From contig JAZNOU010000012.1 in the NCBI GenBank assembly GCA_045589295.1, positions 32,001-96,000 of the forward strand: DNA of 64,000 bases, in the 5' to 3' direction. Origin of the DNA: Clostridia bacterium (GTDB taxonomy: Bacteria > Bacillota > Clostridia > RGIG6154). Numbering within the stretch: position 1 is the first letter of the stretch; every line of letters starts with the position of its first letter. Shown in pieces: positions 13,698 to 62,065 of this stretch. The position numbers and the translations under genes are program-made. Below the pieces are notes generated by a model. It was given only the letters and a program-made list of their open reading frames with translations, had not been told where the DNA came from and searched no databases.

Positions 13698-13732
13698 ATT
13701 ATAACATATAGGTAATGTGACATTCAAGGACA
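13698..13732 (-). promoter_or_regulatory. Phage late-type promoter: 20-bp activator box plus extended -10
   Basis: Minus strand TGTCCTTGAATGTCACATTA-CCTATA-TG-T-TATAAT; box identical to 47818-47837. Confidence 0.85.
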
Positions 13733-25746: not shown

Positions 25747-26095
25747 TGGTGGAGATGAGGAGAATTGAACTCCTGTCCGAAAATTTGTCCTTCGATACGT
25801 CTACAGGTTTAGTTTACGGATTTGTTTTCTTTCCCTCGGGGCACCGTAAACGAAGCCCTTTGGGACATAGCTTTTTATACCTGACTTGCTAAAAGCATCA
25901 CAAGTTCACGTTCACTGCGAAACTTTTCGCCTTGGGCTCTGCCGCAGTATCAGAGAACAAGACGGCAGCCGTTAATTAGGCAGCGTAAGCTAAATTTTTG
26001 TTAGCGTTTAAAATTTAATTGCACATTTTTAAGATGCTGTGCGCATCTACCTGCAATACCGAGCTCTTAATCCCCGTCGAAACCATTGCACCCCC
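25747..26095 (-). ncRNA. ssrA: tmRNA; tag peptide ANKNLAYAA* at 26005-25976
   Basis: 5' GGGGGTGCAATGGTTTCGACGGGG, 3' GGACAGGAGTTCAATTCTCCTCATCTCCACCA, Ala acceptor stem, adjacent to smpB. Confidence 0.97.
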
Positions 26096-47117: not shown

Positions 47118-47147
47118 AAAGATGTGATGAAAATCACATCTTTTTTT
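47117..47147 (+). terminator. Terminator after holA
   Basis: AAAAGATGTGAT-GAAA-ATCACATCTTTT. Confidence 0.8.
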
Positions 47148-47162
47148 ATGAATAATGAAGGA

Positions 47163-47186
47163 GCAAACGCTTTGGCGTTTGCTTTT
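47163..47186. repeat. 24-bp hairpin-containing direct repeat, copy 1
   Basis: GCAAACGCTTTGGCGTTTGCTTTT. Confidence 0.85.
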
Positions 47187-47400
47187 ATTTTATGGGGGTT
47201 GGGTTGTTGGTTATGCCTAAGATGTAGTCAGAAGATACGTTATAAAGTTTTGTTAGTTTGATTACCATTGAAACCGGAATTTCTCTCAAACCACGTTCAT
47301 ATCTTGCATACACTTGACGGTTACAGGTAAGGTACTCGGCTACCTGTTCTTGTGTTAAGTCGTTATCCATTCGTAAATCATACAAACGTTTAAAAAACAT
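47185..47400 (-). CDS. XRE-family HTH regulator
   Basis: LRMDNDLTQEQVAEYL..NRQVYARYERG. Confidence 0.9.
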   Translation of the reverse strand: MFFKRLYDLRMDNDLTQEQVAEYLTCNRQVYARYERGLREIPVSMVIKLTKLYNVSSDYILGITNNPTPIK

Positions 47401-47491
47401 TAAAACCACCTCTTGACTTTAATGTTACCATATGGTATCATTTATGTTATTAATATGGTACCAAACGGCACCTTGGAGAAAGGATATAATT

Positions 47492-47722
47492 ATGAATATT
47501 AAAGTTGAATTATTAAAAGAGTGGGTGGCGGACCGAATTATAAACAATATGAATGATTTTGAAATTGACGCTAATGAAATTGCAGACAGCACTGCCATTA
47601 GGGCACTTTCGGAAATTCAGAAAATTTTGATAAGCGATGATTATGATGAAGAAATTGTGGAGCAGATTGTGTCGGTTTTTTCAAAATATCATTTGGATTT
47701 TGGTTCTTGTCACAATTATTAA
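47492..47722 (+). CDS. Small acidic hypothetical protein
   Basis: RBS GAAAGGA; MNIKVELLKEW...GSCHNY. Confidence 0.7.
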   Translation: MNIKVELLKEWVADRIINNMNDFEIDANEIADSTAIRALSEIQKILISDDYDEEIVEQIVSVFSKYHLDFGSCHNY

Positions 47723-47740
47723 AAGTTTTTATAATATGGT

Positions 47741-47764
47741 GCAAACGCTTTGGCGTTTGCTTTT
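47741..47764. repeat. 24-bp hairpin-containing direct repeat, copy 2 (terminator)
   Basis: GCAAACGCTTTGGCGTTTGCTTTT followed by longer T run. Confidence 0.85.
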
Positions 47765-47817
47765 TTTTTCGCTTTGCGACAAGGTTTTACAAAATAAGTG
47801 CAGTCTACTTTGAAACA

Positions 47818-47852
47818 TGTCCTTGAATGTCACATTATAGTAGTGGTATAAT
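47818..47852 (+). promoter_or_regulatory. Phage late-type promoter: 20-bp activator box plus extended -10
   Basis: TGTCCTTGAATGTCACATTA-TAGTAG-TG-G-TATAAT; box identical to 13713-13732 (minus). Confidence 0.88.
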
Positions 47853-47877
47853 GCGCCCAGTCGAAAGGAGAGGCGAT

Positions 47878-48057
47878 ATGCAAAATAAAGTTTTGAATAA
47901 GACCGAGATACTTTTTAACTTAAGCTTAATTGCAAAAGATGACGCAGTTGCACCTAATTACAGAATAAAAGCTTTGGAGCTTTTGGGTAAGGCAAAGGGG
48001 ATTTTTGAGAGCGACGAAAAGGTTTTGGGTACTGTTAAGATAGTGGATGATATTTAA
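47878..48057 (+). CDS. Terminase small subunit, truncated (oligomerisation part only)
   Basis: 59 aa; RIKALELLGK..GIF motif; RBS AAGGAG; N-terminal HTH absent. Confidence 0.75.
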   Translation: MQNKVLNKTEILFNLSLIAKDDAVAPNYRIKALELLGKAKGIFESDEKVLGTVKIVDDI

Positions 48058-49251
48058 GTGAATTTAAAAGATGCTGTAGCACCAAGCTTTTTTAGTGTTC
48101 ACGAAGCAATCAAAAAAGAAAAGTATACCCATTACTTTTTAAAAGGCGGAAGGGGTTCTGCCAAATCATCTTTTGTTTCTGTTGAAATTATTTTAGGTAT
48201 TATGAAAAACAAAAACGCTAATGCGGTGGTTTTAAGATGCGTTGCGTCTTCGCTCCGTGACAGCGTAATAGAACAGCTCAGCTGGGCGGCCGACCTGTTG
48301 GGCGTTTCGCATCTCTTTAAGACGACTTTTGCTCCTGCTGAAATGATTTTTTTACCGACGGGTCAGAAAATTATTTTCAAAGGGGCAGACGATGTTAAGA
48401 AAATCAAATCCACAAAGGTTAAAAACGGATACATAAGATATGTTTGGTTTGAAGAATGTGATGAATTTAAAAGCTACGACGATATTTTATCTGTTAACCA
48501 ATCTCTTTTACGAGGCGGTGAAAAGTTTGAAGTTTTTTACACTTTTAATCCGCCAAAAAATAAATCACATTGGATTAATTCGGTTAAGGGAAACAAAGAC
48601 ACGCTTTTTCATCACTCCACATACTTAAGCGTTCCATTTAAATGGCTTGGAAAACAGTTTTTTGAGGAAGCCGAAAGACTTAAAAATACTGATGAAGAAA
48701 GGTACCGGCATCAGTATTTAGGTGAATGTATTACTCCCAAGGAGCAGATTATTAAAAATTTTGAGGTTTTAGATGAATTACCTGAAACTGACATTAAGTT
48801 TTTAGGTCAGGATTTTGGGTTTAACCATGCAAATGCTATTTTGGAAGTGGGATTTACTGAAAACACTATTTACATTTACAAAGAGCATTATGTAAAGGGT
48901 ATGGACACTTCAGAGGTTATAAAAGATGCCGAAGGCATATTCAATAAAGACCTCATTATGTGGTGCGACAGTGCTGAGCCTGACAGGATTAAAATGTGGA
49001 AAAAGGCTGGATACAGAGCAGTACCTGTTTCAAAGGAGCGCGCATCTGTAAAAGCTCAGATTGATTTTCTTCTTTCCCATAAAATTGTTATTCATTCGTC
49101 CTGCGTTAACACTGTTAACGAAATAAACGGCTGGTGCTGGATGAAGGACAAGGCTACGGGTGAGTGCAGCGATGTGCCAAACCCAATAAATGACGATTTA
49201 ATGGCGGCGCTTCGCTACAGCATTGAATATTTAAGAAAGGCAGGATTTTGA
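48058..49251 (+). CDS. Terminase large subunit, PBSX family
   Basis: KGGRGSAKS, YVWFEE, TFNPP, GQDFGF, CDSAEP, DDLMAALRY. Confidence 0.95.
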   Translation: MNLKDAVAPSFFSVHEAIKKEKYTHYFLKGGRGSAKSSFVSVEIILGIMKNKNANAVVLRCVASSLRDSVIEQLSWAADLLGVSHLFKTTFAPAEMIFLPTGQKIIFKGADDVKKIKSTKVKNGYIRYVWFEECDEFKSYDDILSVNQSLLRGGEKFEVFYTFNPPKNKSHWINSVKGNKDTLFHHSTYLSVPFKWLGKQFFEEAERLKNTDEERYRHQYLGECITPKEQIIKNFEVLDELPETDIKFLGQDFGFNHANAILEVGFTENTIYIYKEHYVKGMDTSEVIKDAEGIFNKDLIMWCDSAEPDRIKMWKKAGYRAVPVSKERASVKAQIDFLLSHKIVIHSSCVNTVNEINGWCWMKDKATGECSDVPNPINDDLMAALRYSIEYLRKAGF

Positions 49252-49254
49252 TTT

Positions 49255-50532
49255 TTGAATATTTACTCAGTTTGCGATTATTTAGGCAAGAAGCTTGGAA
49301 TAAACATTCCTTGCGATTTTTATCAGAACGTAAAGCTCTGGCGTGACTGGTACAAGGGGTATTCAAAAGAGTTTCATCACTATACCGATTTTAACGGCAA
49401 AGAAACGGTGGAACTTGACAGGTACTCGCTTAAAATGGCAAAAAAAGTGTGCGAAGACTGGGCAAATCTGTTGTTTAACGAAAAGACTGTTGTTGCATCT
49501 GATAATGAAAAGGCGGACAAGCTTTTAAAAAGCATATTTTCTGCAAGCTCATTCCGCCAGGGAATGAACAATTTGGTTGAAAAGGCGTTTGCGCTTGGTA
49601 CAGGGGCGGCAGTTTTAAGGTTAAAGGGCAGTGAGATTTCGTTTGATTTCATAGGCGCAGAGTCAATTATTCCAATTTCGTACAAAGATGGCAATATTGA
49701 GGAAGTAGCCTTTGCAAGTGATTTTTATCATAGAGGCAAAAGGTACACTTACTTAGAGTGCCATTTAAAAGACAGTAACGGAAACTACGTTATTACAAAC
49801 GAGTATTTAGACGATTTGTTTGGTGTGGCTGAATTAGACACGGGGGTAATTAAAAGCTACAACACAAACTCTTGTATGCCGTGGTTCTCCATTATAAAGC
49901 CTAATATTGTAAACAATATTAACGATGTAACACCTCTCGGCATCTCGGTTTTTGCTAACGCGATTGACGTTTTAAAGGGACTTGACCTTGCGTATGACAA
50001 TCTTTGCACAGACTTTTTCTTAGGCGGGAAAATGATTATGATGAACGAAACGGTGATTGCAAAAGAAGAGGGCGGAAGAAGAATTCCTCCGCAGTTTTCA
50101 AGAAAGCGCCTTTTTATGTCAATGGGAGATTCTATTATTGACGGGAAAATGTATGAAGAATATAATCCTGCGCTCCGCGTTGACGAAAACACAAAGGGTA
50201 TTTTTACCCAGCTTTCGATTTTGGCCTCCATTTGCGGACTTGGTGAAAAGTTTTACTCTTTTTCAAACAATGAGGTTAAAACTGCAACTGAGGTTATGAG
50301 TGAAAACTCATCTCTTTTCAGATGTGTGAAAAAACACGAAATTATCATCGAAAATGCGCTTATTGCACTTGCAAAGGCGGTGCTTGATATTTTCAAAATT
50401 GATGCAAATGTTACAGTTATGTTTGATGACAGCATTATTGAAGACAAAAAGTCTGAAAGAGAGCAGGATTTTAAAGATGTAGAGGCAGGTCTTATGGAAA
50501 AGGAAAGTTACATCAGAAAGTATCACGCATAA
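49255..50532 (+). CDS. Phage portal protein (SPP1/A118-like)
   Basis: MAKKVCEDWANLLFNEK, PLGISVFANA, KTATEV, FDDSIIED. Confidence 0.92.
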   Translation: MNIYSVCDYLGKKLGINIPCDFYQNVKLWRDWYKGYSKEFHHYTDFNGKETVELDRYSLKMAKKVCEDWANLLFNEKTVVASDNEKADKLLKSIFSASSFRQGMNNLVEKAFALGTGAAVLRLKGSEISFDFIGAESIIPISYKDGNIEEVAFASDFYHRGKRYTYLECHLKDSNGNYVITNEYLDDLFGVAELDTGVIKSYNTNSCMPWFSIIKPNIVNNINDVTPLGISVFANAIDVLKGLDLAYDNLCTDFFLGGKMIMMNETVIAKEEGGRRIPPQFSRKRLFMSMGDSIIDGKMYEEYNPALRVDENTKGIFTQLSILASICGLGEKFYSFSNNEVKTATEVMSENSSLFRCVKKHEIIIENALIALAKAVLDIFKIDANVTVMFDDSIIEDKKSEREQDFKDVEAGLMEKESYIRKYHA

Positions 50533-50541
50533 GGAGAAAAA

Positions 50542-50970
50542 ATGGATTTTTTAAAAGAATTTTTAAGTGCTGAGCTTTTTGACTCTGTTAAAAAAGAGCT
50601 TGAGGGCAAAAATGTTAGCCTTATTAACAATTTCAGCGGTGAATATGCTCTAAAAAGCGAGCTTGAAGAACAAAGCAATAAAAAAATCAACGAAATTATG
50701 TTTGAAAATGCGCTCTCTAGCGCGCTTGAAAAAAGTGGAGTTAAAAGCGTTAAAGCGCTCAAAGGGTTTTTAGAGCCTGAAAAAATGAGTTTTGAAGACG
50801 GAGTTTTAAAGGGCTTTAATGAACAGATTACAAAAATAAAAAAAGAAAACGGATTTTTATTTAACGATTTTGGTATAACAGGGCATTCTCACAAAAGCGG
50901 GATGACTGATTTTAACTCAATGAGTGATGATGAATATTACCAGAGCGTTTTAAGAAAGGATGAATTTTAA
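50542..50970 (+). CDS. Capsid scaffolding protein (GP20-like)
   Basis: ALEKSGVKSVKALK, EQITKIKKENGFLF; position before capsid. Confidence 0.85.
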   Translation: MDFLKEFLSAELFDSVKKELEGKNVSLINNFSGEYALKSELEEQSNKKINEIMFENALSSALEKSGVKSVKALKGFLEPEKMSFEDGVLKGFNEQITKIKKENGFLFNDFGITGHSHKSGMTDFNSMSDDEYYQSVLRKDEF

Positions 50971-50972
50971 TT

Positions 50973-52082
50973 ATGGCAAATCAGCTTATTACTATTAAAG
51001 AAATTGCAAGGGCGGCTCTTCCGAGACTTATTGAAAATCTCGCGTTCCCGAACCTTGTTCACAAAGATTTTTCTAACGAGTTTGTTTCAGGTAAAGGTGA
51101 CAGAATTCAGGTAAGAAAGCCTGTTGTGTTATCTGCAGAAGAATTTGATGAAGCAAAAGGCACTTCTGTGCAGGATATTAACGAATCTTCTGTTGAAGTG
51201 GCACTCGACAAGCTTGCAACAGTTGATACAGAATTTTCTGCAATTGCTGCGGCAACTTCTATTGACGATATCAACAGAATTTTCATTGAGCCTGCGGCTG
51301 CGGCTCTTGCACAGAAAATCAACTCTGATGGTTTAGAACTTTATAAAGATATTCCTTATATTACAGGTGAAGCAGGCAAAACTCCGTCTTCCCTGGAAGA
51401 CATTGCGGCTGTAAGAAAGGCTTTAAATGACAAAAATGTTCCGATTACTCCGAGAGTTGCGGTATGGGACACTGAAGCAGACACCAAGTTTACAACTGTT
51501 GACGCTATTGTTCACGCTGACAAGTCAGGCAGAGTAAAAGCACTTCGCGATGGTTCAATCGGTAAGATTTTCGGACTTGAAAACTATATGTCTCAGGCCG
51601 TTAAAAAGCACAAGAGTGAATTGTCAGGCACTGCCCTTAAGATAAATGGTGCGACAGAAGAGGGGGCTACGACACTTTCTGTTACAGGAACAACTCTTAC
51701 AGGCAAGTTTGTAAAAGGCGACGTGCTTAAAATTGACGGCAAAACTTACACAGTTACTAAAGATTCAGATGAAGCGGCAAACAACACAATCGCTGAAGTT
51801 TGTGTTTACCCTGCTCTTGGCGCAGTGAAAGACAAAACAGAAATTACGTTAGTTGGAGACCACACAGCAAATCTTGCGTTTAATCCTATGGCGTTTGCTT
51901 TTGTAACACGTCCGCTTTCTGCTCCGTCAGGCGTTGAAAGCTATGTTACAAGCTACAACGGCATTACACTTCGTGTTGTTAAGGGATACGATATGAAGCA
52001 CAAAAAGGAAATGCTTTCTATGGACGTGCTTTACGGCTACAAAACTATGTATCCTGAGCTTGCAACAAGAGTTTTGGGCTAA
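50973..52082 (+). CDS. Major capsid protein (P22 coat-like)
   Basis: KGDRIQVRKP, ALAQKINSD, NLAFNPMAFAFVTRPL, SMDVLYGYK. Confidence 0.9.
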   Translation: MANQLITIKEIARAALPRLIENLAFPNLVHKDFSNEFVSGKGDRIQVRKPVVLSAEEFDEAKGTSVQDINESSVEVALDKLATVDTEFSAIAAATSIDDINRIFIEPAAAALAQKINSDGLELYKDIPYITGEAGKTPSSLEDIAAVRKALNDKNVPITPRVAVWDTEADTKFTTVDAIVHADKSGRVKALRDGSIGKIFGLENYMSQAVKKHKSELSGTALKINGATEEGATTLSVTGTTLTGKFVKGDVLKIDGKTYTVTKDSDEAANNTIAEVCVYPALGAVKDKTEITLVGDHTANLAFNPMAFAFVTRPLSAPSGVESYVTSYNGITLRVVKGYDMKHKKEMLSMDVLYGYKTMYPELATRVLG

Positions 52083-52103
52083 TCCTTTAAAGGAGGAGCT
52101 TGT

Positions 52104-52436
52104 ATGGATAAAGTAGGATTTGATTATTATCAGAACGTCTTTTTAGGCAGTGAGATTACTTCCAAAAAGGTGTTTGAAAAATTAGAGCGCTACGCACTTT
52201 CGTACGTTGATAAAATCACTTTCGGCAGAATTACTTATATGACCGAAAGCATTAAATGTGCGGTTTGCAGTGTGTGTGAGGCGCTTTTTAAAAGTAGTGA
52301 GCGAAGCGGCATTAAACACGAGGTAAATGACGGATATTCTGTGACTTATACCGATAAGGCAGAAAGCGAATTTTCTGATATTTATATGGCGGCGGCTGTG
52401 TTTTTGCCCGCGGAACTTCTTTACAAAGGTATTTAG
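52104..52436 (+). CDS. Head-tail connector (adaptor)
   Basis: FDYY..F.G, VDKITFGR, KCAVC, NDGYSVTY, LLYKG. Confidence 0.75.
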   Translation: MDKVGFDYYQNVFLGSEITSKKVFEKLERYALSYVDKITFGRITYMTESIKCAVCSVCEALFKSSERSGIKHEVNDGYSVTYTDKAESEFSDIYMAAAVFLPAELLYKGI

Positions 52437-52492
52437 CGGAAGGGGGCAATCCCTTTCATGCACAGATTATGAGTAAGGGGTGGATTTTTTAA

Positions 52493-52795
52493 ATGATATG
52501 CTGCGATAAATGTATTACGGTGTTTTCGTTTAACGGGAGGGCGTATGACAGTTTTGTTTTTGATGGTGTGAGTATTTTTGGTTCTGACGGGATTAAAGAA
52601 AATAATTCGGGGTTTGAAGAAAACAACAGCTTTAAAATAAGAATCCCGACAACTCAAAAGATTAGTGTTGCACCAGGTGACAGGGTTGTTTTCGGCATAA
52701 AAGATGCTTTTGATGCAGAAAATGCTTACACCGTTATGAGTGTTAAAGACAACACCAGGGGTGTAAATAAGCACTTTTTAATTGAAATTAAATAA
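52493..52795 (+). CDS. Head-closure-like protein (DUF6751-like)
   Basis: ITVF, IRIP, GDRVVFG, VKDNTRG..H; position. Confidence 0.65.
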   Translation: MICCDKCITVFSFNGRAYDSFVFDGVSIFGSDGIKENNSGFEENNSFKIRIPTTQKISVAPGDRVVFGIKDAFDAENAYTVMSVKDNTRGVNKHFLIEIK

Positions 52796-52880
52796 TTTTT
52801 TGTGGGTTGGAGTATCGAAAAGGCAAGTTGTGTTTTAAGGTGGGAGAAAACACAGAATTTAAAAAGAAAGAGGGATTGAT

Positions 52881-53270
52881 TTGATAGATAAAATTCAGGA
52901 ATTTTTGCTCGGTTTCGGGCATTTCAATATAGATTATTTATCGGGAAAGATTAACGGAATGAGTGTGTATCAGGATAATTTTAATCCCGTCAAAAAGCCG
53001 TATTCCGGCGGCGGCGGACTTTACAGGTATTCCTTTTTTGTTGAAATCACAAGCCCTTATGCTGCCGATTTAAATGCAGGCAACCATATGGTGGTTGACG
53101 AGCTTATTGATTTCATAGAAAGAAAAAATTTAAAAAGGCAGCTTCCTGAACTTAAACAGGGGTTAAAGGCGCAGTCTATAAAGGTAATACAAAATTTCGG
53201 GCGTGTGAATACTGCAGTAAACAAGGCAAATTTCAGGCTAAAGCTTGAACTTTTGTACACAAAGGGGTGA
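52881..53270 (+). CDS. Tail-terminator-like protein
   Basis: IDYL, KKPYSGGG, LPEL, RLKLELLY; precedes tail tube. Confidence 0.65.
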   Translation: MIDKIQEFLLGFGHFNIDYLSGKINGMSVYQDNFNPVKKPYSGGGGLYRYSFFVEITSPYAADLNAGNHMVVDELIDFIERKNLKRQLPELKQGLKAQSIKVIQNFGRVNTAVNKANFRLKLELLYTKG

Positions 53271-53287
53271 TATCTTTGGATTTAATT

Positions 53288-53770
53288 ATGCTATCTGAAA
53301 ATCTAGCGGCATTTATGGAAATTGATGGTAAGTTTTATAAAATGCAAGGTTTTTCAAAGCTGGATATTCTTTCTGTGCCTGAGGTTTATGCAAGAAAATA
53401 CATAAACAACGACTTTAAAAGTGTAACAGTTACTGGCGGTGACACAAAAATTTCATACGCTTTTGACAGAATGAAAAATTTTAAGGTTCATGACGTTTTA
53501 TCACGTATTGCAGACCTTAATTTGAGCGGTGACGAGGCGACAGTAAAAATTGTTTTGGTCGATTTTGACAATGAACAAGACGGAAAGTTTTATGCTATTA
53601 AGCAAAGCTTTGCAGTTGTGTGCAAAGATGTTCGGCCTGAGGATGGTTTTTTAGATTATTTTGGTATGTTTATTTCTTCGGGTAAGGCATCAGAGGGGGC
53701 TGTTACCTCCTGTGATGGTTTTGAAACTGCTGATTTTACAGAGAAAAGGAGGGGAATATTATGCGATTGA
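53288..53770 (+). CDS. Major tail tube protein-like
   Basis: AAFME..FYKMQGFSKL..PEVYARKYI..ISYAFD; start uncertain (53267 or 53288). Confidence 0.65.
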   Translation: MLSENLAAFMEIDGKFYKMQGFSKLDILSVPEVYARKYINNDFKSVTVTGGDTKISYAFDRMKNFKVHDVLSRIADLNLSGDEATVKIVLVDFDNEQDGKFYAIKQSFAVVCKDVRPEDGFLDYFGMFISSGKASEGAVTSCDGFETADFTEKRRGILCD

Positions 53771-54600
53771 TTTTTGAAAGCGACGGCAAAAAACTTGAAA
53801 TGGGTGACGATTGCGACGCCTCTGTTATTGAAATCTCGGGGCTTGGTACGCCTGAAAGGCAATACAACACCAAAAGGTATGTAAATATTCCAGGACAGGT
53901 TACTGTTTCTTCGCACGTGCTTGCAAGAAATATTGTAATTAAGGGTGATATATGTTTAAACGGAGGGTTGCCGACAGAAAAATATCACACTTTTTTCTGT
54001 CAAAGCGGAATGCTTACCATAACAGGAAAAGATAAAAAGAACATTAATTACAATCCTGTTTCTTTTAAGACGGGCAATAGAAATGGCGAGTTTGTTTCTT
54101 TTGAGCTTAAATTAGTTTGCGATTTTCCTTACTTTTCTGACGGCAATGACATTCCGTATGAGATATACAAAAGATTAGATATGGTAACAGGTAAGTTTAG
54201 TTTACCTAAAGTTTTTACCAAAAGAGTTACTGAGGTGGATATCTACAATTCGGGACAGGCAGACTCTGAACCTGTTATAACCATTGGATGTACAAATCAG
54301 GGTATTTACTCAGGCGGCATTGTGATTTACAATGCGCTTACAAAAAAAGAACTTAAGCTGGATACCAATCTTTCTTTAGGTGAAACGATTACAATTGATA
54401 TAAAAAACAGAAAAATCTCGAGTAATAAGAGAGCAAACTGCTACGGAATTTTAAATGAGAATTGTGTTTTGTCTGATTTTGTGATTGCAAGGGGAATAAA
54501 TCATATTTTACTTACAAACTTAAACGACGGAGAAACAGTTACAGCATCAATTTTGTTTAATAATTTATATGCGGAGGCGGAGATTGTTGAAAGAAATTAA
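53761..54600 (+). CDS. Distal tail protein (Dit)
   Basis: ISGLG, ARNIVIKG, LVCDFPYF, IYNSG, GINHI. Confidence 0.85.
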   Translation: MRLIFESDGKKLEMGDDCDASVIEISGLGTPERQYNTKRYVNIPGQVTVSSHVLARNIVIKGDICLNGGLPTEKYHTFFCQSGMLTITGKDKKNINYNPVSFKTGNRNGEFVSFELKLVCDFPYFSDGNDIPYEIYKRLDMVTGKFSLPKVFTKRVTEVDIYNSGQADSEPVITIGCTNQGIYSGGIVIYNALTKKELKLDTNLSLGETITIDIKNRKISSNKRANCYGILNENCVLSDFVIARGINHILLTNLNDGETVTASILFNNLYAEAEIVERN

Positions 54601-55726
54601 AATTTATGATTTTGACTTTAACCTGATTGCTTCCGAGTTTAAGTGCGTTTCATTTAAGTGGGATGTAAGATTTAATTCAATTGGCGGCTTCGAGGGGGTA
54701 TTTACCCTTGATTCTGACATTTATTCTACGTGTGCAAACAAGGATTTTTTGGTTTGCGTTCAAGGCGAAAATCAGGGAATTGTAACCTCTGTGAGAATTG
54801 AAAACGACCAGATTATAATTAGCGGGAAGTCTTTAAACTTTTTGCTTGAAAAAAGGGTTTGTCTACCTTTTTCAACTAAAGATAGCGGTATTTTAAAATC
54901 TGCTCCCGAGCTTGTGTGCGAGTTGGTTTTAAAGTATTGCGGTGATTTTATGGAGGTTTTAAGTGCACCACAAGGATACGATAAATCGCATTTTACCAGG
55001 ATTGAAGCAAAGCCTCTTTGCGAGATTGTAACAGATTTGCTAAGCGGTGTTAATCTTGGACATTTTGTTAAGTTTGACATAAAAAACAAAAAGTGGATAT
55101 TTGGCATAATAGAGCCTGAAGTAAAAAACATTGTGCTTTCAGAACCTGACAAAACCCTTTCTGATTGCGATTATGTAAGATATTTGTCAGACTATGCTGC
55201 GTCAGGCGTTTATCAGCAAAAAGTATATTATCAGGGCTTGTGGAATGCTGAGACAAACACTCCTTTTTTGTGGGACAATGAAAAACCCAATTTTGCAAAA
55301 GCTTACAAGGTGGAAGAGGCCGGTCAGATGTTTGGCATAAGTTTTGACAAGGGTGATTACATTATTTGCAAGGATGAAAGCGGTAAGTGGCAAAAAAGTG
55401 CAGATTGCTTACCTTTTTGGTACAAGGTTACACCTAAAAACGCAAATGGAGCTAAACTTTGGGAGTGCGCTTTATCCTGCGATGATATTTCAGAGGCTTA
55501 CGAATTGACACTTTTAAGAGAAATAAGCGAAAATGTGGTAGCACTTACCGAGGGTGAGGTTAAAAACGAGTTTAAAGTGGGCGATATAATAAAAATTCAG
55601 CTTGGCAGAGGCGATGCTCTAAAGGTTTTTACAAAGCAGGTTAAAAGAATGGTGCATCACAGCGACGCTGAGGAAAGTTTTGTAAGACCTACATTCTATA
55701 AGTTAAAGGAGAGGGAAGATGAGTAA
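54587..55726 (+). CDS. Baseplate hub / Gp37-like tail protein
   Basis: IKIYDFDFN, FNSIGGFE, ISGKSLNFLLEKRV, FKVGDII; after Dit. Confidence 0.75.
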   Translation: MKEIKIYDFDFNLIASEFKCVSFKWDVRFNSIGGFEGVFTLDSDIYSTCANKDFLVCVQGENQGIVTSVRIENDQIIISGKSLNFLLEKRVCLPFSTKDSGILKSAPELVCELVLKYCGDFMEVLSAPQGYDKSHFTRIEAKPLCEIVTDLLSGVNLGHFVKFDIKNKKWIFGIIEPEVKNIVLSEPDKTLSDCDYVRYLSDYAASGVYQQKVYYQGLWNAETNTPFLWDNEKPNFAKAYKVEEAGQMFGISFDKGDYIICKDESGKWQKSADCLPFWYKVTPKNANGAKLWECALSCDDISEAYELTLLREISENVVALTEGEVKNEFKVGDIIKIQLGRGDALKVFTKQVKRMVHHSDAEESFVRPTFYKLKEREDE

Positions 55727-56573
55727 TTATAAATATACTTTTTTTGATAATCAGACGGTTGGCGTTGACCATTTGAACGAAATTACAAAGAGGCTTGTGT
55801 CAGGGGGGATTTCTGCAGTTTACAGCGGAGTAGATTTTAATGTTGCAGACATTAATGATAACAATAAGGCGATTTTAACAGGCGGTGTTGTACCTGGAAA
55901 TGATTTGAATTTAAAGGTAACGGCGGTAGGAAGCGGAAAGTACCTTATAAATCAGGGACTTTGCTTTTTTAACAACGGCACTACTATGGAGATTTTATCG
56001 GGCGGAGAAGAAATTGTTGTACCGCAAGGGGTAACAAGCTACATTTATTTGGTGTCCGACAGCAATAAAATGGCGTGTTATGTCGAAGTTTTGCAAAGTG
56101 AAAAGCAGACGGGTGAATTTATTCTTCTGGCTGTTATAAATGTTGACGGGACAGTTGTCGATAAACGCACCTATGCGAAAGGTAAAGTTCCCGGGTTTTA
56201 TGCGTCTTCCGAGAGCATGCAGGTAAATATTACCCAAAAATATGAGGGAGAAAAAAATATAGAAATTTCGGTTGGTATGGGCAATTTTAAGCATCTTTGT
56301 ATCAGGGCAGAGTCAGGCGCTTTTCATAATGGTTCTGGGTATAACATTAATTACGGGGGACTTTTTTATTGTGATTTTGAAAACTCAGTTGCGGTAAATC
56401 CTTCTATGTGTTCCGTGCTTGCAGGCGATAGTTATATTTATTATGACAGAAACATTGGCTCCTGCCGTCTTGGGTCTAATATTAGATTGGAAAACGGAAA
56501 GCTCATTATACCTGTGATAGAGGGTAATGTAAATAAGGGGTATGAAGTACGGTTTTCATATCATTTATGGTAA
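55719..56573 (+). CDS. Baseplate structural protein
   Basis: FFDNQ, GV, LKVTA..G, G.CFFNNG; position. Confidence 0.65.
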   Translation: MSNYKYTFFDNQTVGVDHLNEITKRLVSGGISAVYSGVDFNVADINDNNKAILTGGVVPGNDLNLKVTAVGSGKYLINQGLCFFNNGTTMEILSGGEEIVVPQGVTSYIYLVSDSNKMACYVEVLQSEKQTGEFILLAVINVDGTVVDKRTYAKGKVPGFYASSESMQVNITQKYEGEKNIEISVGMGNFKHLCIRAESGAFHNGSGYNINYGGLFYCDFENSVAVNPSMCSVLAGDSYIYYDRNIGSCRLGSNIRLENGKLIIPVIEGNVNKGYEVRFSYHLW

Positions 56574-56585
56574 GGAGGAGTTTAG

Positions 56586-59411
56586 ATGAAGAGAAAAATT
56601 ATTCCAAAACAAAAATATACAACCTATGCTTCGTTTCCGCTTGTGTCTGGCGACGTAAGGGCATACGAGATAGAGCTTGATTTAGGTGAAAATGTTTCGG
56701 GGGCGGAGTTTAAGGTAGTTGCAATCCGCGCTGACGGCAAGGCTATTGAGGATTTGGGAACAGTTGAAAACGGAATCGCAAGATATACTTTATCAAACAG
56801 TATGTACGCCGTACAGGGTGAGCTTACTGTAAGATTGCAGATACTTCATAATTCAAGTGTTTTAACTGATAGGGAAATTATTTTTGAGGTTAAAAAAGGT
56901 GCGACTGATACTACAGCGGCACAAACTGTTATGCCTCTTAACGACAGTGTGATTTTAAGAGTTTCTGCATTTGAAGATAAGCTTTTAAGCAAGGTTGACA
57001 AACAAGCGGGCATGGGACTTTCGACAAATGATTTTTCGGACCAGTACAAGCAAAAACTTGATAACTTAGATGAAACTATGGGAGCAGAAATAGAGCAAAT
57101 ATCAGAAACGATTGATAATTTGTCAGATAGTTTTGATGAACACACAAAAGACAAAGCAAACCCCCACAATGTTACGGCGCAGCAGGTTGGTGCATATTCA
57201 AAATCTGAAACAGATAACAAGCTTTATAAAAAAGCGGATAAATCAGATATTTCTAATATATACTCATATCAAGGCTCAGTTGATACTTTTGAGGATATTG
57301 AGTGTATCAGCATAACGCTTGTCCCCAATGGCGAGCCTACTTGCAAAGGACAAGTATGCGGGTCGTTTAATGAAGATGATGGGTGTGTGACTATCGATGA
57401 GATAGCAGAAGAAGATTTTGATACAATTATTATTCCAATAAAAGAGGTAACGCTTAAAAAGGGGTATTATGCTATATCAAGCGAGCTGAGAGATGGTATG
57501 TATAAGTCAGGAATTGCAATTGATATTTACCAAATGGATGAATTTAATGTGCAGGAAGGATATGTTTTCAAAGTCGAAAATGACACGGTTATAAATCTGG
57601 CTCATATATTCAGACATAGTGATTCACTATTTGGTGGTTGCACAGGAGATGTTGTATGCACACTTACCAAAATGCCAAATATACTTGTAGATGAATCCAG
57701 CTATAACGAACAATATGGAACTTGTGAAGCGTATGGCATTTCTCCGTCAAACGGCTCAGTATACAACGTCTTAGACACGGGTATAAACTATGCTTGGAAT
57801 GGTACTGAATGGGACGCTTTAGGCGGTGAGCATAAGGATTTAGAGGCTAGAGAAGAAATTAAAAAACTGTCTGATAGTTTGGACTGTATTGATATTAGTG
57901 ATAATAACATTTCGTTTAACAGAGATAAAAACACAGTCGGCATAATAAAAGAGATTGGTAGTTTCACCTGTACTGCGATTGATGAAAGTACAAACAAATA
58001 CACCTTTGATGTTGCTGACACGTCAGTTTTTGTTTCATACACCGAGTACAAGGTTACGGTAGATGATACTGACTATCTTATAAGGTCAACAACAATAAAC
58101 GAAGATAACGTTGTGTTTGAAGCGGTTGATGATGCAGTTCCTTTTGAGGTTGGAAATACATACAACATAAGATTTGAGACAAAAAATGCAACCTCTTTTG
58201 GTGTGGATAATACAGTTTTGGCAAATGAGGGCTTTGCAACAGGTATGGCTAATTTCATTGATGAAACTGGCGACCAAGGTGTTGCTCACGGATACGGCAA
58301 TAAGCTCTCAGGAAAGGCACATTTTGTTGCAGGTTCATCAAATGATGTTTCAGAAGGCAGTACTGATACAATATTTGGCAGTAACAACATTGTCAAAGGC
58401 AGTAACAAACTTGTTGCAGGTCTAAACCTGCTTGCGGAATTAACTGCTTCGGGAAGTGCTGTATTAGGAAAATACAACATTGATGTAAAAGATGCTTTGC
58501 TTATAGTTGGTATCGGATATGATAAAAACCACAGACAAAATGCTTTGGTTATGGACAAAAACGGCAATATTGTAGCTTATGGTACTCTTACTGTGGATAA
58601 TAATGTAAGTATTAACGGAGAGCTAAATGTTTGCAATAAAGCTGTTATGTCTAAGGGGTTAGAGGTTAACGGTGAAACTACGATTGATGGCAGTACAAAT
58701 ATTAAAGGAGCAATGGCATATAAAGAGTCTGAGGTTGTGAACCTAGAAATGTTATCCAAACATACAGGTATCGATATTGGCAGAAAAGGTGCAGGTTATA
58801 TGTCTGTCGTGTTTAATCACGACGGTAATGAAGGAAGCGGGTATGCTTCGTTTACTGCAGGCACAAGTAACAAAACAACTGCAGGACAGGCAGCAACCTT
58901 TGGGCACGCAAATGAAAATAGCGGTTTTTCTGCTTTTACTGCAGGCTCGGGCAATATAACTACAAAAGACCAAGGTGCTACGTTTGGCTATTCAAATGAA
59001 AATCACGGATGGGCTTCTTTCATAGCCGGTGCTTTTAACAAAATAAAAGGAGCTTTTAACGCCTGTATTGCTTTAGGTAGGGATATATTAATAAATGCAG
59101 ATAACGCTATTGGTATTGGAAGAGGACTTAATGTTGATAAGGCTAACCAAGTAGTTGTTGGTGCATATAACAAGTCTGATAATGAATCTGTGTTTATAGC
59201 AGGCTGTGGTACGGATGATAAAAACCGCAAGAACGCAATAACTGTAAGAGAATCTGACGGACGTACCAAAATCCATAATGGGCTTGATGTAGAAGGTTTA
59301 ATAAACGGTGTGGATTTACAAGAACTTAAAACGCAAATGGGTGACATTAACACTGCACTTGAAGCCATTATCGAAATTGACAATAAACTGATTGGCGGTG
59401 ATGGTGAATGA
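56586..59411 (+). CDS. BppU-like N-terminus plus tail fibre/receptor-binding protein with YadA-like head repeats
   Basis: KVDKQAGMGLSTNDF, NPHNVTAQQVG, WDALGG, repeated SFTAG.N/ATFG.N, V.GxYN...GxG..RxNA. Confidence 0.8.
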   Translation: MKRKIIPKQKYTTYASFPLVSGDVRAYEIELDLGENVSGAEFKVVAIRADGKAIEDLGTVENGIARYTLSNSMYAVQGELTVRLQILHNSSVLTDREIIFEVKKGATDTTAAQTVMPLNDSVILRVSAFEDKLLSKVDKQAGMGLSTNDFSDQYKQKLDNLDETMGAEIEQISETIDNLSDSFDEHTKDKANPHNVTAQQVGAYSKSETDNKLYKKADKSDISNIYSYQGSVDTFEDIECISITLVPNGEPTCKGQVCGSFNEDDGCVTIDEIAEEDFDTIIIPIKEVTLKKGYYAISSELRDGMYKSGIAIDIYQMDEFNVQEGYVFKVENDTVINLAHIFRHSDSLFGGCTGDVVCTLTKMPNILVDESSYNEQYGTCEAYGISPSNGSVYNVLDTGINYAWNGTEWDALGGEHKDLEAREEIKKLSDSLDCIDISDNNISFNRDKNTVGIIKEIGSFTCTAIDESTNKYTFDVADTSVFVSYTEYKVTVDDTDYLIRSTTINEDNVVFEAVDDAVPFEVGNTYNIRFETKNATSFGVDNTVLANEGFATGMANFIDETGDQGVAHGYGNKLSGKAHFVAGSSNDVSEGSTDTIFGSNNIVKGSNKLVAGLNLLAELTASGSAVLGKYNIDVKDALLIVGIGYDKNHRQNALVMDKNGNIVAYGTLTVDNNVSINGELNVCNKAVMSKGLEVNGETTIDGSTNIKGAMAYKESEVVNLEMLSKHTGIDIGRKGAGYMSVVFNHDGNEGSGYASFTAGTSNKTTAGQAATFGHANENSGFSAFTAGSGNITTKDQGATFGYSNENHGWASFIAGAFNKIKGAFNACIALGRDILINADNAIGIGRGLNVDKANQVVVGAYNKSDNESVFIAGCGTDDKNRKNAITVRESDGRTKIHNGLDVEGLINGVDLQELKTQMGDINTALEAIIEIDNKLIGGDGE

Positions 59412-60571
59412 GTAACAGTATAGAGCAAAACCTTGTGACTATTGCTGAAAACCGACAAAAGATTTATGATGCAGGGAGAAATGCCGTTATAAACGAACTG
59501 AAGGAACTGCAAAAAGGCACTGCAAATGGTGAAGTTGTTGCCATTTCTGATATATCACCTATCCCACATAATATTGATGTTAAAGTATCAAGCAAAAATA
59601 TAGTTAATGCTGATGTTTTATGTGGCAAACAATTTACTAAAAATGATGATGGAAGTTATACCTTTACTATGGGTAGTGGCGGTAATAGATTTACTGCAAT
59701 GGCTAATATATTTATTCCAAAAGGCTCAAAAGTTGTGTTTTCTATAACTGGTTTTGAGAGTGATAATATTGCTTTGGTTGGTATTCAAACACTTTATGCT
59801 AATGGCACTTATTTAAGTAGTTATGATGTAAAGCCTGGATATTTATCAAACAAAGCAATTAAAACAGAAGATGATATAGTAGGCTTGCGCTTATATCTTA
59901 ATCAAGGCACTGCTGAAGGAGCAACAGTAAAACTAACTGGTATTCAATTGGAATATGGCACAGTAGCAACCGCTTATACACCTTATGTAGATGTAAGCAC
60001 AGTTAAGTTAGATGCTCTTGGGAAAAATCTGTGGGATGCAGACTTAAATAAAATAGCACCAGTGCAATATACATCTGCGACAAGCGGTGGAATGGCAAAA
60101 AGAAATGGTTGGGAAATGGAATTGGTTGCAGGTGTTACATACACAGTAAAAGCAACACCAAAAGAAAGCAGTTTTACAGAAAGTTATTTGTACGGATGTG
60201 TAACTGATAAGGATGATAAAGTTAAAAAGACTACACCTTTAGTAGCAAATCAACAGTTACAAACTCACACATTTACAGCAGAAGATGGTTGGAAATTAAA
60301 GCTGTATGACGGGATTGCGCAAAACGGACTTACAGATACTAAGACAATGGTGTCAAAATTTAATATTCAGCTTGAAATCGGTGAAAAAGCAACACCTTAT
60401 GAACCACATATCCAGCCTGTAACATATATACCGAATGCAGACGGAGCTATAGAGGGGGTAAAGAGTGTTTGCCCTAATATGACTCTTTTAACTAATACTG
60501 AAGGAGTAATGATTGAGTGCAACTATAAGAAAGACATAAACCCGATTTTTGATAAATATGTGAGAGATTAG
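59408..60571 (+). CDS. Tail-associated protein with duplicated carbohydrate-binding-like modules
   Basis: Two KNL/KNI...QLExG.xAT.Y.P modules. Confidence 0.7.
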   Translation: MSNSIEQNLVTIAENRQKIYDAGRNAVINELKELQKGTANGEVVAISDISPIPHNIDVKVSSKNIVNADVLCGKQFTKNDDGSYTFTMGSGGNRFTAMANIFIPKGSKVVFSITGFESDNIALVGIQTLYANGTYLSSYDVKPGYLSNKAIKTEDDIVGLRLYLNQGTAEGATVKLTGIQLEYGTVATAYTPYVDVSTVKLDALGKNLWDADLNKIAPVQYTSATSGGMAKRNGWEMELVAGVTYTVKATPKESSFTESYLYGCVTDKDDKVKKTTPLVANQQLQTHTFTAEDGWKLKLYDGIAQNGLTDTKTMVSKFNIQLEIGEKATPYEPHIQPVTYIPNADGAIEGVKSVCPNMTLLTNTEGVMIECNYKKDINPIFDKYVRD

Positions 60572-60581
60572 GAGTGATTTT

Positions 60582-61283
60582 ATGAGAATCTGTGTAGATG
60601 CAGGGCATAATTATGATGGGTTTGACACAGGAGCAATTGGCAACGGCTTAAAAGAACAGAATGTTACATTTGAAATTGCAGACAAACTTAAAACCCTTTT
60701 AACCAAAGAAGGTATCGGCGTTACAATGACAAGAGCAAAACTTACTGACAATGTTGGGGTTAATGCAAAAGACAGCATAAATCAAAGGGTGAGAATTGCC
60801 AATACTACAAGATGCGACTATTTTATATCAATTCACTGTAATTCAAGCACAAACAAAGGTGCAAACGGAACCGAAACGCTTATCTACGGGTTTGGTGGAC
60901 AAGCTGAGAGAATAGCAAAAGCGGTAAATGCGAGTATTGTATCAGAGTTAGGTACTTATGACAGAGGTGTTAAAGTAAGAACTGATTTGGGCGTTTTAAG
61001 GGATACTTCAATGCCTGCAATTTTGGTTGAAACGGCTTTTATTTCAAATGAGAAAGATGCTAAACTTTTAAAAGAAAAAACAGATGATTTTGCACAAGCA
61101 ATTTTTGAGGGGATTTTAGAGCATTTGGACAAGAAAGAAGAAGTTGATATCATTGAAAGACTTTCAGAAATTATTGAAATTAATGATAAAACAACTGCAA
61201 AGGCTCAGCTTTTGAAAGAAAAAGAAAAAAATTCAAGTCTGTATTGGATTTTATACAAAATTGCAAACAAGGAGGGGACATAA
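60582..61283 (+). CDS. N-acetylmuramoyl-L-alanine amidase (Amidase_3 endolysin)
   Basis: DAGH, LKE, ISIHCN, ILVETAFISN. Confidence 0.93.
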   Translation: MRICVDAGHNYDGFDTGAIGNGLKEQNVTFEIADKLKTLLTKEGIGVTMTRAKLTDNVGVNAKDSINQRVRIANTTRCDYFISIHCNSSTNKGANGTETLIYGFGGQAERIAKAVNASIVSELGTYDRGVKVRTDLGVLRDTSMPAILVETAFISNEKDAKLLKEKTDDFAQAIFEGILEHLDKKEEVDIIERLSEIIEINDKTTAKAQLLKEKEKNSSLYWILYKIANKEGT

Positions 61284-61483
61284 TGGATGTTGGTCAGATT
61301 ACTGATATGATAATGAATCAGGGGATATGGTGTGCACTTTTCTGCTATCTTTTTTATAGCGTGCGAAAAGAATCAAAAGATGACAAAGCACAGCTTATGG
61401 AACTTTTAAGTCTGCAGAGCGAAAAGCTTTCGGAGATAACCGCGGCACTTGAAAATCTTTCTAATAAAATAAAATCAAATTAA
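61283..61483 (+). CDS. BhlA/UviB-family holin
   Basis: QGIWCALFCYLFYSVRKES; RBS AAGGAGG. Confidence 0.85.
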   Translation: MDVGQITDMIMNQGIWCALFCYLFYSVRKESKDDKAQLMELLSLQSEKLSEITAALENLSNKIKSN

Positions 61484-61535
61484 AAATTTAAAAAAACTCT
61501 TTACATTTTGATAATAATATGTTATTATACCTTGT

Positions 61536-61595
61536 AAACCTTTTGCTATGGTTCGGGAATCTCCGACCCGAATCGTTGTGAAATGGCGATTTTAT
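61536..61595 (+). promoter_or_regulatory. Putative S15 autoregulatory leader
   Basis: Structured TTCGGG..CCCGAA stem in the rpsO 5' region. Confidence 0.45.
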
Positions 61596-61619
61596 ATTAT
61601 TTTTTGGAGGTATTTCAAA

Positions 61620-61883
61620 ATGGAAAAAGAAGTAAAACAGCAGATTATCGCGGATAACAAAATCCACGACACAGACACAGGTTCACCTGAAGTTCAGATT
61701 GCAATTTTAACAAACAGAATCAATCACTTAAACGAACACCTTAAAGTGAACAAAAAAGACTTCCACTCAAGAAGAGGTCTTTTGAAAATGGTAGGTAAAA
61801 GAAGAGGTCTTCTCTTATACTTGCAGAAAAAGGACATCGAAAGATACAGAGCTATCATTGCTAAGCTCGGTCTTAGAAAGTAG
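61620..61883 (+). CDS. rpsO: 30S ribosomal protein S15
   Basis: [31 protein letters not shown]. Confidence 0.98.
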
Positions 61884-61885
61884 TA

Positions 61886-61920
61886 AAAAACGGAGGGAGA
61901 ATTTTTGCTCCCTCTTTTTT
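61886..61920 (+). terminator. Terminator after rpsO
   Basis: GAGGGAG..CTCCCTC followed by T run. Confidence 0.65.
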
Positions 61921-62065
61921 GCGTTAAAAGCCCCGAAAAATTTTGGAGGTTTAACGGAGAAAAGAGTTAGTTTTTTATCCTTGTTTACAATTTAAAAATT
62001 ATTATAAATGCACCTGTGAGTGCAAAGCGCATGGACAAGTGTCCGTGCAGAAAGGTTGGTATTTT

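Follow-up and report, generated by a model that had tools for sequence, protein, structure and literature searches.

A siphophage-derived candidate gene transfer agent kept by one order of uncultured gut Clostridia

Between holA and rpsO in the genome of an uncultured Clostridia bacterium (assembly GCA_045589295.1, here G000) lies a compact run of phage virion genes, and the question it raises is whether this run is a prophage on its way to decay or a particle-making system that the host lineage has kept. The whole stretch of DNA that we analysed, referred to below as the window, is 64,000 nucleotides long (G000:C12:32001-96000, contig JAZNOU010000012.1), and the genes in question, which we call the element, occupy its positions 47878-61483. 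G000, the genome from which this DNA comes, is a 1.54-Mb bin of 22 contigs (97% complete, ~36% G+C), and its genus, labelled g1 in our trees, holds four species. A sequence-only reading of the window had noted about 15 co-oriented, tightly packed open reading frames (ORFs) running from terS to holin without frameshifts, and had proposed a domesticated element of the gene transfer agent (GTA) type rather than a decaying prophage. We think it rather likely, though with only modest assurance, that the cluster forms the main locus of a particle system of the GTA type (a viriform), one that has been domesticated and passed down vertically, derives from a siphophage and has been kept by one order of uncultured gut Clostridia. 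As known here from its genes, the element is a strong candidate GTA.

The ORF list of the window gave an exact count of 16 plus-strand ORFs in the cluster, all intact, with no broken frames and with overlaps or gaps of at most ~90 nt. The left neighbours are comEC and holA (46137-47117) and the right neighbour is rpsO, for which the longest ORF starts at 61548 and the S15 domain begins near 61635. Gene identities were taken from Pfam and PHROGs searches of the window proteins:

47878-48057, plus strand: TerS-like small terminase of 59 residues without DNA-binding domain (3zqp profile match; weak phrog_51)
48058-49251, plus strand: large terminase TerL of the Terminase_3 / PBSX-SPP1 type (PF04466, 1.6e-40; PF17288)
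49255-50532, plus strand: portal, SPP1 Gp6-like (phrog_533, 1.3e-91; PF05133)
50542-50970, plus strand: scaffolding protein (PF06810, 5.2e-16)
50973-52082, plus strand: major capsid protein of the P22-coat type (PF11651, 5.7e-46; phrog_283)
52104-52436, plus strand: head-tail adaptor, first of three neck genes (together phrog_541, PF20536, phrog_3266)
52493-52795, plus strand: DUF6751 protein, neck gene (same basis)
52881-53270, plus strand: tail completion protein, neck gene (same basis)
53267-53770, plus strand: tail tube (major tail) protein p167 (phrog_3099; fold match of a structure model)
53761-54600, plus strand: Dit, tail tip (for the tail tip genes together phrog_33, weak PF22768, PF14594; orthologues in all genera)
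54569-55726, plus strand: Tal/Gp37-like protein, tail tip (same basis)
55719-56573, plus strand: conserved 284-residue protein p284, tail tip group (orthologues in all genera)
56586-60571, plus strand: fibre (941 residues) and p387 (387 residues) (weak tail-fibre PHROG matches; N-termini common to motif-driven genes elsewhere)
60582-61283, plus strand: Amidase_3 endolysin (PF01520, 2.5e-47)
61244-61483, plus strand: BhlA-family holin (PF10960, 6.5e-07)

The chromosome thus carries a set of tailed-phage-like particle genes of the kind that marks a GTA (terminase, portal, scaffold, capsid, neck, tube, Dit, Tal, fibre and lysis). The fibre and p387 are probable receptor-binding proteins. In a comparison of the cluster with assemblies from other runs (all 24 available runs being gut metagenome contigs), the stretches 56153-56581 (C-terminus of p284) and 59529-60094 and 59562-59989 (middle of p387) were found replaced in other assemblies by unrelated sequence of similar length, which looks like strain-level swapping of probable receptor-binding parts. 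An independent metagenome assembly (run X1) bridged 47763-55206 colinearly, and the junction of the tube and Dit genes was also found in runs X2 and X4; because independent assemblies bridge it, the layout is not a binning artefact. A megablast of the whole cluster against phage records gave no match, and the nearest deposited phages were distant (capsid ≤40% identity over part of its length, TerL ≤42%).

The absence of an integrase, a replication gene and flanking att repeats, on which the sequence-only reading had leaned, was borne out by our searches. By Pfam and PHROGs no replication, integration or excision gene lies between holA and rpsO, and Phage_integrase (PF00589) had no match inside the cluster (the nearest in G000 being C12:31428-31925, ~48 kb upstream) or on the cluster contigs of three other carriers (G007, G008 and G015), serine recombinases not having been searched for. 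We found neither an att-like direct repeat around the cluster nor a tRNA next to it, the sole RNA gene found in the window being a tmRNA gene (25747-26095, minus strand; tag peptide ANKNLAYAA). Two joints that skip the whole cluster, 45966 to 62362 and 47518 to 61061 (run X2), had sides of only 21-22 letters and were not trusted as empty sites. The cluster is ~10.5-11 kb long in G006, G007 and G015 and ~13 kb in G008, where it includes lysis and toxin genes, and in all four both of its borders are host genes, i.e., genes with homologues elsewhere in G000. Flanks are kept within genera: comEC-holA on the left and rpsO-pnp on the right in G000 and G002, a common downstream flank in G006 and G015, and common upstream flanks in G007/G012 and in G011/G015. 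In G002, a sister species, two ABC-transporter genes (594 and 598 residues) are inserted between holin and rpsO (L098:2430-6010, G002:C1).

The GTDB order consists of one family with 18 species in six genera, and the capsid gene was present as a single copy in 14 of these species and five of these genera (apparent second matches in G001 and G004 were contig-end pieces of the same gene). All four misses fell in genus g3 and included a genome that is 96% complete. Among 399 scored genomes sampled from the class, six outside the family (of ~384 outside the order) matched the capsid, with 33-63% identity. The relatives that we fetched from outside the order had only the capsid, portal, scaffold and Gp15 genes in common with the element, together with other terminases, tape measures of 450-873 residues and many ORFs without host homologues, and they look like ordinary mosaic prophages. 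In a host tree, built from two proteins only (PNPase and LepA) and with a midpoint root, g3 and the 14 carriers were split by a branch with 100% support. We omitted gyrB from this tree, as the gyrB sequences of the family form two groups by identity to G000 (67-73% and 82-83%); with a second gyrB-like gene in G008 (G008:C30:13269-15161), these groups suggest gyrB paralogy or replacement in the family. In the element tree (TerL, portal and capsid) every genus was monophyletic, with support of 97-100, and the deep order was (g1,g5),(g4,g6),g2, which differs from the weakly supported g5+g6 grouping of the host tree. Within G000's genus, identities were 93-95% for host proteins, 87-92% for capsid, 78-87% for TerL and portal and 41-71% for tail proteins; between genera they were 80-89% for PNPase and LepA, 71-78% for capsid (71-92% over the whole family), 54-62% for TerL and portal and 28-57% for tail proteins. 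The comparison of TerL and capsid with host phylogeny had been put forward by the sequence-only reading as its test, with patchiness and tree incongruence as the outcome that would count against it; what we found was a single non-carrying genus and monophyly of all the others.

Selection on the element pointed the same way. The same 13-14 core genes are intact in five genera, with PNPase 83-89% identical to that of G000. Every element gene tested had a ratio of nonsynonymous to synonymous substitution rates (dN/dS) of 0.04-0.44, versus 0.08 for comEC and holA; these are pairwise Nei-Gojobori values from three species pairs in G000's genus and three in g4 and g5, and with dS at 0.4-3, mostly 0.6-3, they are saturated and the ratios rough. 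TerS (dN/dS 0.06-0.18), TerL and portal were among the best conserved element genes. Amino-acid conservation at such divergence speaks for constraint, i.e., for element genes under purifying selection, and vertical inheritance of the element within the host clade under such selection is supported. That the cluster is instead an inert prophage remnant that has not yet decayed strikes us as scarcely credible: losses there are (the tape-measure-like and chaperone genes are missing in G000's genus, one of the toxin genes is split, and only toxin fragments remain in two sister species, as described below), but all 16 ORFs are intact, as are the core genes across five genera, dN/dS is far below 1 at saturated dS, and the promoter motif is conserved where the sequence flanking it is not. 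The claim of domestication rather than decay is likewise supported by the distribution, the monophyly of the genera, the dN/dS values and the host flanks, and by two further features, a truncated TerS and a dispersed, co-regulated gene set.

We placed the start of TerS at the ATG at 47878, behind a AGGAGAGG ribosome-binding site, which gives a protein of 59 residues; its orthologues have ~59-65. A profile of ten orthologues matched the small terminase of Bacillus phage SF6 (PDB 3zqp, E-value 3.2e-11), with the alignment covering only residues 81-104 and 122-159 of 164. Because the match is confined to the C-terminal half of SF6 TerS, the element TerS has no DNA-binding domain, the missing N-terminal part of the SF6 protein being its helix-turn-helix DNA-binding domain. 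The TerS proteins of two GTAs, RcGTA of Rhodobacter capsulatus and FpGTA of Faecalibacterium prausnitzii, are reported as lacking a DNA-binding domain or sequence-specific binding (Borodovich et al., Nat Commun 2026, PMC12946183).

The second feature came from the DNA just upstream of terS, where we found the following promoter:

47818-47852, plus strand: regulon promoter, a 15-nt motif TGTCCTTGAATGTCA overlapping a TTGAAT -35, then an 18-nt spacer and TATAAT

The TGTCnTTGAATGTCA box over the TTGAAT -35 was present upstream of terS in 12 of the 12 genomes with upstream sequence (with small variants in g4), followed ~14 nt beyond the motif by a TATAAT-like -10, in surrounding DNA that is unrelated between genera. 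A promoter scan also recovered this promoter. The exact 15-mer has three copies in the 1.54 Mb of G000, each with a -10: before terS, at 13718-13732 of the window (minus strand) and at C12:2798-2812. A degenerate pattern of the motif had 35 matches in 13 of the 14 carrier genomes and none in the four g3 non-carriers, with three matches for a reversed control pattern; the carrier without a match (G017, 65% complete) carries a variant outside the pattern. We examined 31 of the 35 matches, the other four having returned no locus:

before terS: 14 matches, two of them at the contig ends of one G003 locus
before toxin/barstar genes or their remnants: 5 matches
before proteins of 377-447 residues with N-termini matching the 941-residue fibre: 4 matches, one followed by a p387 homologue
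before an Amidase_2-SLH endolysin and a holin: 2 matches, in two g5 species whose main cluster is without lysis genes
before a gene resembling phage replication initiators, in g6: 2 matches
before a RelE/XRE/SecB-like trio: 1 match
inside genes, probably by chance: 3 matches

The motif-driven fibre and amidase-plus-holin loci were seen in genera g4-g6, i.e., the same parts are contiguous in G000's genus and scattered, though co-marked, in other genera. Among relatives from beyond the order, the stretches that we fetched do not contain the motif. Together the motif loci form a predicted dispersed regulon like those of GTAs. The g6 gene (L116:556-1506 in G013:C19; L102 in G008:C7) has Lin1244_N and Phg_2220_C domains like those of a replication initiator or replisome organiser and no homologue in G000, and it may be a co-opted DNA-binding protein. 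The trio follows a box variant, TGTCATTGTTTGTCA, at L112 (G006:C1:75278-78292), and its RelE-like, XRE/MqsA-like and SecB-like genes have the layout of a toxin-antitoxin-chaperone module; this match could be chance. A look-alike motif at C5:19866 was set aside, as no plausible gene lies downstream of it.

Several candidates for control of the regulon were considered. No gene family recurs upstream of the motif sites across genera. No ArpU-type activator (TIGR01637) scored above the cut-off in G000, RinA-type families not having been searched, and the only match below it was sigma-F in a spoIIAA-spoIIAB-sigF-like operon (G000:C3:25164-26600, outside the window). From the presence of this operon, the small-genome lineage of G000 may sporulate, which could bear on the timing of particle gene expression. 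Other Sigma70_r4_2 matches in G000 resembled an ECF sigma factor with its anti-sigma factor, a SigH-like protein and a YlxM-like protein. Control through an SOS (LexA) box of this kind is not supported: GAACN4GTTC with at most one mismatch had 18 matches in the window where 20.7 were expected, none of them at 47700-47880 or near 13700, and no LexA box was found upstream of terS in 11 of 12 genomes, the match in G006 lying an unconvincing 298 nt upstream. The sequence-only reading had seen no repressor, and on this point it was mistaken, since the minus strand immediately to the left of the cluster carries a gene of the HTH_3 (XRE/Cro-CI) helix-turn-helix type, as part of a small cassette:

47185-47766 (578 bp): strain-variable cassette with an XRE-type helix-turn-helix gene (47185-47409, minus strand; PF01381, 1.6e-12) and a divergent 76-residue ORF (47493-47722, plus strand), flanked by 32-nt direct repeats

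The repeats (47160-47191 and 47738-47769) are a duplicated holA terminator. Contigs of two other studies are without the cassette (joint 47186 to 47763; runs X1 and X4), and G002 has no such gene at this site, an 84% identical copy being located elsewhere in that genome. Because it is absent from X1, X4 and this site in G002, we regard the cassette as a strain-level insertion and not as the conserved repressor of the element; it may represent a little mobile module, either regulatory or resembling a toxin-antitoxin system. Two TACCATATGGTA-like palindromes lie between its helix-turn-helix gene and its 76-residue ORF.

The dispersal of the regulon bears on another explanation, namely that the element is a satellite or defective phage that still moves horizontally and depends on a helper phage for replication, integration or, in G000's genus, tail parts. 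Such a helper could be sought in a second phage-like region of G000 (C5:139000-175000), where a 1691-residue ORF (C5:155819-160894) carries a PhageMin_Tail tape-measure domain and C5:138987 and C5:174285 match tyrosine recombinases, and which holds no relative of the element's capsid gene. Mobility would also suit two results that weigh against strictly vertical descent, i.e., that the chromosomal site of the cluster differs between genera and that the deep branching of the element tree departs from that of the best host tree. We nevertheless consider a satellite very unlikely. Every carrier has one copy, absence is limited to one clade and each genus forms a clade of its own in the element tree; no integrase turned up on the three cluster contigs searched, and neither an att repeat nor a reliable empty-site joint was found. 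In addition, a TerS without DNA-binding domain could not recognise the element's own DNA, and because its parts are scattered over several loci with a common promoter, the element could not be packaged as a unit by a virus.

We built an AlphaFold2 model of p167, the protein encoded just before Dit, on 11 orthologues (pLDDT 73.6), and it matched siphophage-type tube proteins in PDB from NF5, 80alpha, SaPI1, monocin, lambda (gpV), SPP1 and RcGTA with a probability of ~1 and a TM-score of ~0.5. From these matches of the model we identify p167 as the tube protein, and it is present in all element-bearing genera. In g2, g4, g5 and g6 two genes lie between the tube and Dit genes, one for a Phage_Gp15 protein (~176 residues, PF06854) and one for a helical protein of 350-499 residues that we label tape-measure-like solely on the grounds of where it lies, how long it is and what it is composed of. 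By contrast, the tube gene abuts Dit in each of the four species of G000's genus, and searches of the four genomes with PF06854 and with a profile of seven tape-measure-like proteins found nothing, the positive controls G007 and G009 being recovered. At the junction the tube ORF reads on through the conserved ribosome-binding site of Dit, which adds ~8 residues; we had considered this C-terminal extension of p167 (KRRGILCD-like) as a tape-measure remnant and dropped the idea, as the similarity is that of the ribosome-binding site read in frame. In relatives from outside the order a long gene comes after Gp15, and the state in G000's genus is therefore most simply explained by a deletion. Since then the rate of change of the tube protein has shifted: its identity in G000's genus is 41-54% (dN 0.41-0.52, dN/dS 0.24-0.32) versus 84-90% in g4 and g5, where the tape-measure-like gene is kept (dN 0.05-0.11, dN/dS 0.05-0.06), whereas capsid identity is alike in the two sets of pairs (89-92% versus 90-95%) and Dit, Tal and p284 do not differ either. 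By these comparisons the tube protein evolves faster in G000's genus, as if relaxed or re-purposed and not lost, and the tail of the particle made there is probably no more than a stub.

The second motif site of the window led to a gene pair of a different kind:

12822-13732, minus strand: second regulon locus, with the motif (13718-13732) and its -10, a toxin gene (13116-13646) and a Barstar immunity gene (12822-13106)

The toxin has 176 residues and a C-terminal ribonuclease domain of the barnase type (PF00545, 2.9e-10), and the next ORF is a Barstar protein (PF01337, 5e-16). Its N-terminus has a CxxC...HxNCxC piece that matches the end of the Phage_Mu_F head-morphogenesis domain; the PF04233 match is weak for the window toxin (20.5 bits, cut-off 29.6) and reaches 30.4 bits for the G007 orthologue, covering only profile positions 64-111 of 112, and residues 19-103 match minor-head-protein families of PHROGs. 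At the third motif site of G000 (C12:2798-2812) a copy of the toxin is split into ORFs of 88 and 95 residues, and in G008 orthologues of toxin and barstar stand inside the element operon, between Amidase_2 and holin. Searching with this toxin as query found it in six of 18 genomes: all four of G000's genus (two with fragments only), one of two in g5, one of two in g6 and none in g2 or g4. Because it is found in only six of 18 genomes, we take the toxin for accessory cargo and not for the core function. A predicted fold of two portal copies with toxin residues 1-64 scored 0.00, which decides neither way on such a complex. Just downstream of the -10 at both toxin promoters (13670-13690 of the window and G000:C12:2752-2772), and not at the terS promoter, is a perfect 14-nt palindrome, AAATAACGTTATTT, which resembles an additional operator particular to these toxin loci.

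This cargo brings in the most serious alternative, a killer or toxin-delivery particle resembling a PBSX-like bacteriocin with a head, in which variable fibres would adsorb to rivals, the RNase with its MuF fragment would be delivered, DNA would be incidental and kin would be protected by barstar. The toxin and its barstar stand under the exact motif of the element at two G000 loci and within the operon itself in G008, the replacement of p284 and p387 segments between strains fits a receptor arms race, and loss of the tape-measure-like gene in G000's genus fits a particle that no longer passes DNA. There is also the precedent of PBSX, a conserved defective phage that packages DNA and kills without transducing, according to the discussion of PMC12946183. 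We regard this as possible and worth keeping in view, if on the whole unlikely, as the toxin occurs in only six of 18 genomes while the particle genes are in all 14 carriers, one of the two G000 toxin genes is split, and the packaging genes for TerS, TerL and portal show some of the strongest conservation, a strange outcome if DNA were irrelevant.

The reading of the element as a domesticated GTA has to be set against several points that weigh against it. For particle, packaged DNA, transfer and transcript alike it draws on genes and contigs alone, and all of the genomes are metagenome bins. A GTA is defined by a head too small for the element's own genes, and the element is a candidate for this class by its genes and not by its head size. 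A tail without tape measure may not deliver DNA at all, and the toxin with its immunity gene would point as much to killing as to gene transfer. No regulator for the motif emerged from the family searches in G000 or from the neighbourhoods of the motif sites. To the two-protein, midpoint-rooted host tree, the saturated dS and the differing chromosomal sites, all given above, is added that the element data reject the host grouping g5+g6 in an approximately unbiased test (p-AU 0.00025), while the host data do not reject the element groupings (p 0.137 and 0.194 under LG+G4); a deep conflict is neither shown nor excluded by these data, and an old transfer between genera may have taken place. In favour of the GTA reading stand the particle genes, the vertical inheritance under purifying selection, the lack of mobility genes in the families searched and what we see as two further GTA-type hallmarks, the TerS without DNA-binding domain and the dispersed, co-regulated gene set.

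Under the GTA reading the system could work as follows. A putative host factor, on a putative signal, would act at the 15-nt TGTCnTTGAATGTCA box and switch on the head-tail-lysis cluster together with the other motif loci. Judged by the gene families, procapsids of the P22-type coat protein would be built on scaffold and portal. The Terminase_3 TerL, with a 59-residue TerS that would have kept its oligomerisation and TerL-facing part, would fill the heads by a headful mechanism without recognition of a pac site; from the lack of a DNA-binding domain in TerS, packaging would therefore be random and the heads would hold host DNA in general. Holin and amidase would lyse the producer cell. The tail of most genera would consist of the tube, a Gp15-type chaperone and a short helical tape-measure-like protein (350-499 residues), and that of G000's genus probably of a stub made of neck, perhaps one tube ring, Dit, Tal and fibres. 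In some species the barnase-type RNase fused to a MuF fragment, with barstar, belongs to the same predicted regulon and may travel in the head as cargo. A bolder version, which we regard as doubtful, would join these parts into a gene-transfer particle with kin discrimination and a remodelled tail: heads would carry both host DNA and a MuF-anchored RNase, only recipients with barstar would survive, tape measure and chaperone would have been lost while the particle stayed under selection (a siphophage-derived 'podovirus'), and one host factor at the TGTCnTTGAATGTCA box would switch the regulon.

To our knowledge there are only a handful of gene transfer agents from beyond the Alphaproteobacteria. 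FpGTA, the first one reported in gut Clostridia, dates from as late as 2026 (PMC12946183), and the element would be a second, structurally different candidate lineage, of siphophage derivation. It comes with a complete parts list over several loci and with a 15-nt box by which further members of the regulon, and what regulates it, can be sought. The genera with and without the tape-measure-like gene would be a natural experiment in the passage from a long-tailed to a stub-tailed particle, and, given an RNase toxin and its immunity gene under the same promoter box, one may ask if such particles serve gene transfer, the killing of rivals or both.

FpGTA is the closest known system, a likeness that we set by its description and not by protein homology. 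Each is a GTA-like element found almost throughout its own clade of gut Clostridia, with a structural operon of ~10.5 kb that begins with a TerS lacking the DNA-binding domain and continues with TerL, portal, scaffold and capsid; each can also have structural or lysis genes at a further locus (FpGTA II there, the motif-driven fibre and amidase-plus-holin loci of g4-g6 here). FpGTA looks short-tailed or devoid of a tail, and the same is likely of the particle of G000's genus. The two differ in that particles and their DNA of 8.4-8.9 kb were demonstrated for FpGTA (PMC12946183) whereas only genes were read here, and in that FpGTA I has 10 ORFs with proteins like those of short-tailed phages whereas the element has 13-16 ORFs of siphophage derivation (tube, Gp15, tape-measure-like, Dit and Tal). 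In place of the podovirus-like gene set without tail tube of FpGTA, we found a tube in all genera and Gp15 with a tape-measure-like gene in four of five. A shared promoter motif, toxin cargo and loss of the tape-measure-like gene are features of the element that the available description of FpGTA does not include. The same source also reports GTA-like packaging in Christensenellaceae bins, for which it does not name the genes.

RcGTA resembles the element in having a structural cluster of ~14-15 kb without replication or integration genes (the RcGTA side partly after the introduction of PMC12946183), a TerS without sequence-specific binding, a short tail, co-controlled extra loci and vertical inheritance across a large clade. 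It belongs to an unrelated lineage: the element has a capsid of the P22-coat type (PF11651) with a scaffold, hosts of the Gram-positive type and another promoter motif. In place of the HK97-fold Phage_capsid protein and prohead protease of RcGTA-type elements (Rhodogtaviriformidae) it has that P22-type set, no match to the HK97 capsid PF05065 being present anywhere in G000, and no control of the CtrA/GafA type was identified for it. PBSX of Bacillus subtilis and the element are both conserved defective phages of Bacillota with a Terminase_3 ('PBSX family') TerL, and PBSX, which packages host DNA and acts as a killer particle, is the functional model for the killer alternative. PBSX, roughly double the size, has a tail of the contractile type along with its own repressor and a late sigma-like factor; the element is without a sheath gene. 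The traits of capsid-forming phage-inducible chromosomal islands do not fit, as the element has no integrase or replication gene in our searches and has a full tail-tip and fibre set.

For the toxin the nearest parallel is the MuF polymorphic toxins of temperate phages (Jamet et al., BMC Biol 2017, PMC5576092), in which a toxin at the C-terminus is joined to an N-terminal MuF piece, with a small immunity gene downstream. The gene at 13116-13646 has such a toxin domain and such a neighbour, and its N-terminus may be a MuF piece. The toxin of the element differs in keeping at most the last ~45 MuF residues and in standing at separate loci or late in the operon rather than beside the portal, and its carrier would be a domesticated element instead of a temperate phage; barnase and barstar have no occurrences in the main text of PMC5576092. 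Set beside these systems, what appears to be new here is a siphophage-derived, multi-locus GTA-like element with a promoter box of its own, an optional toxin and a tape-measure-like gene that has been lost in one genus.

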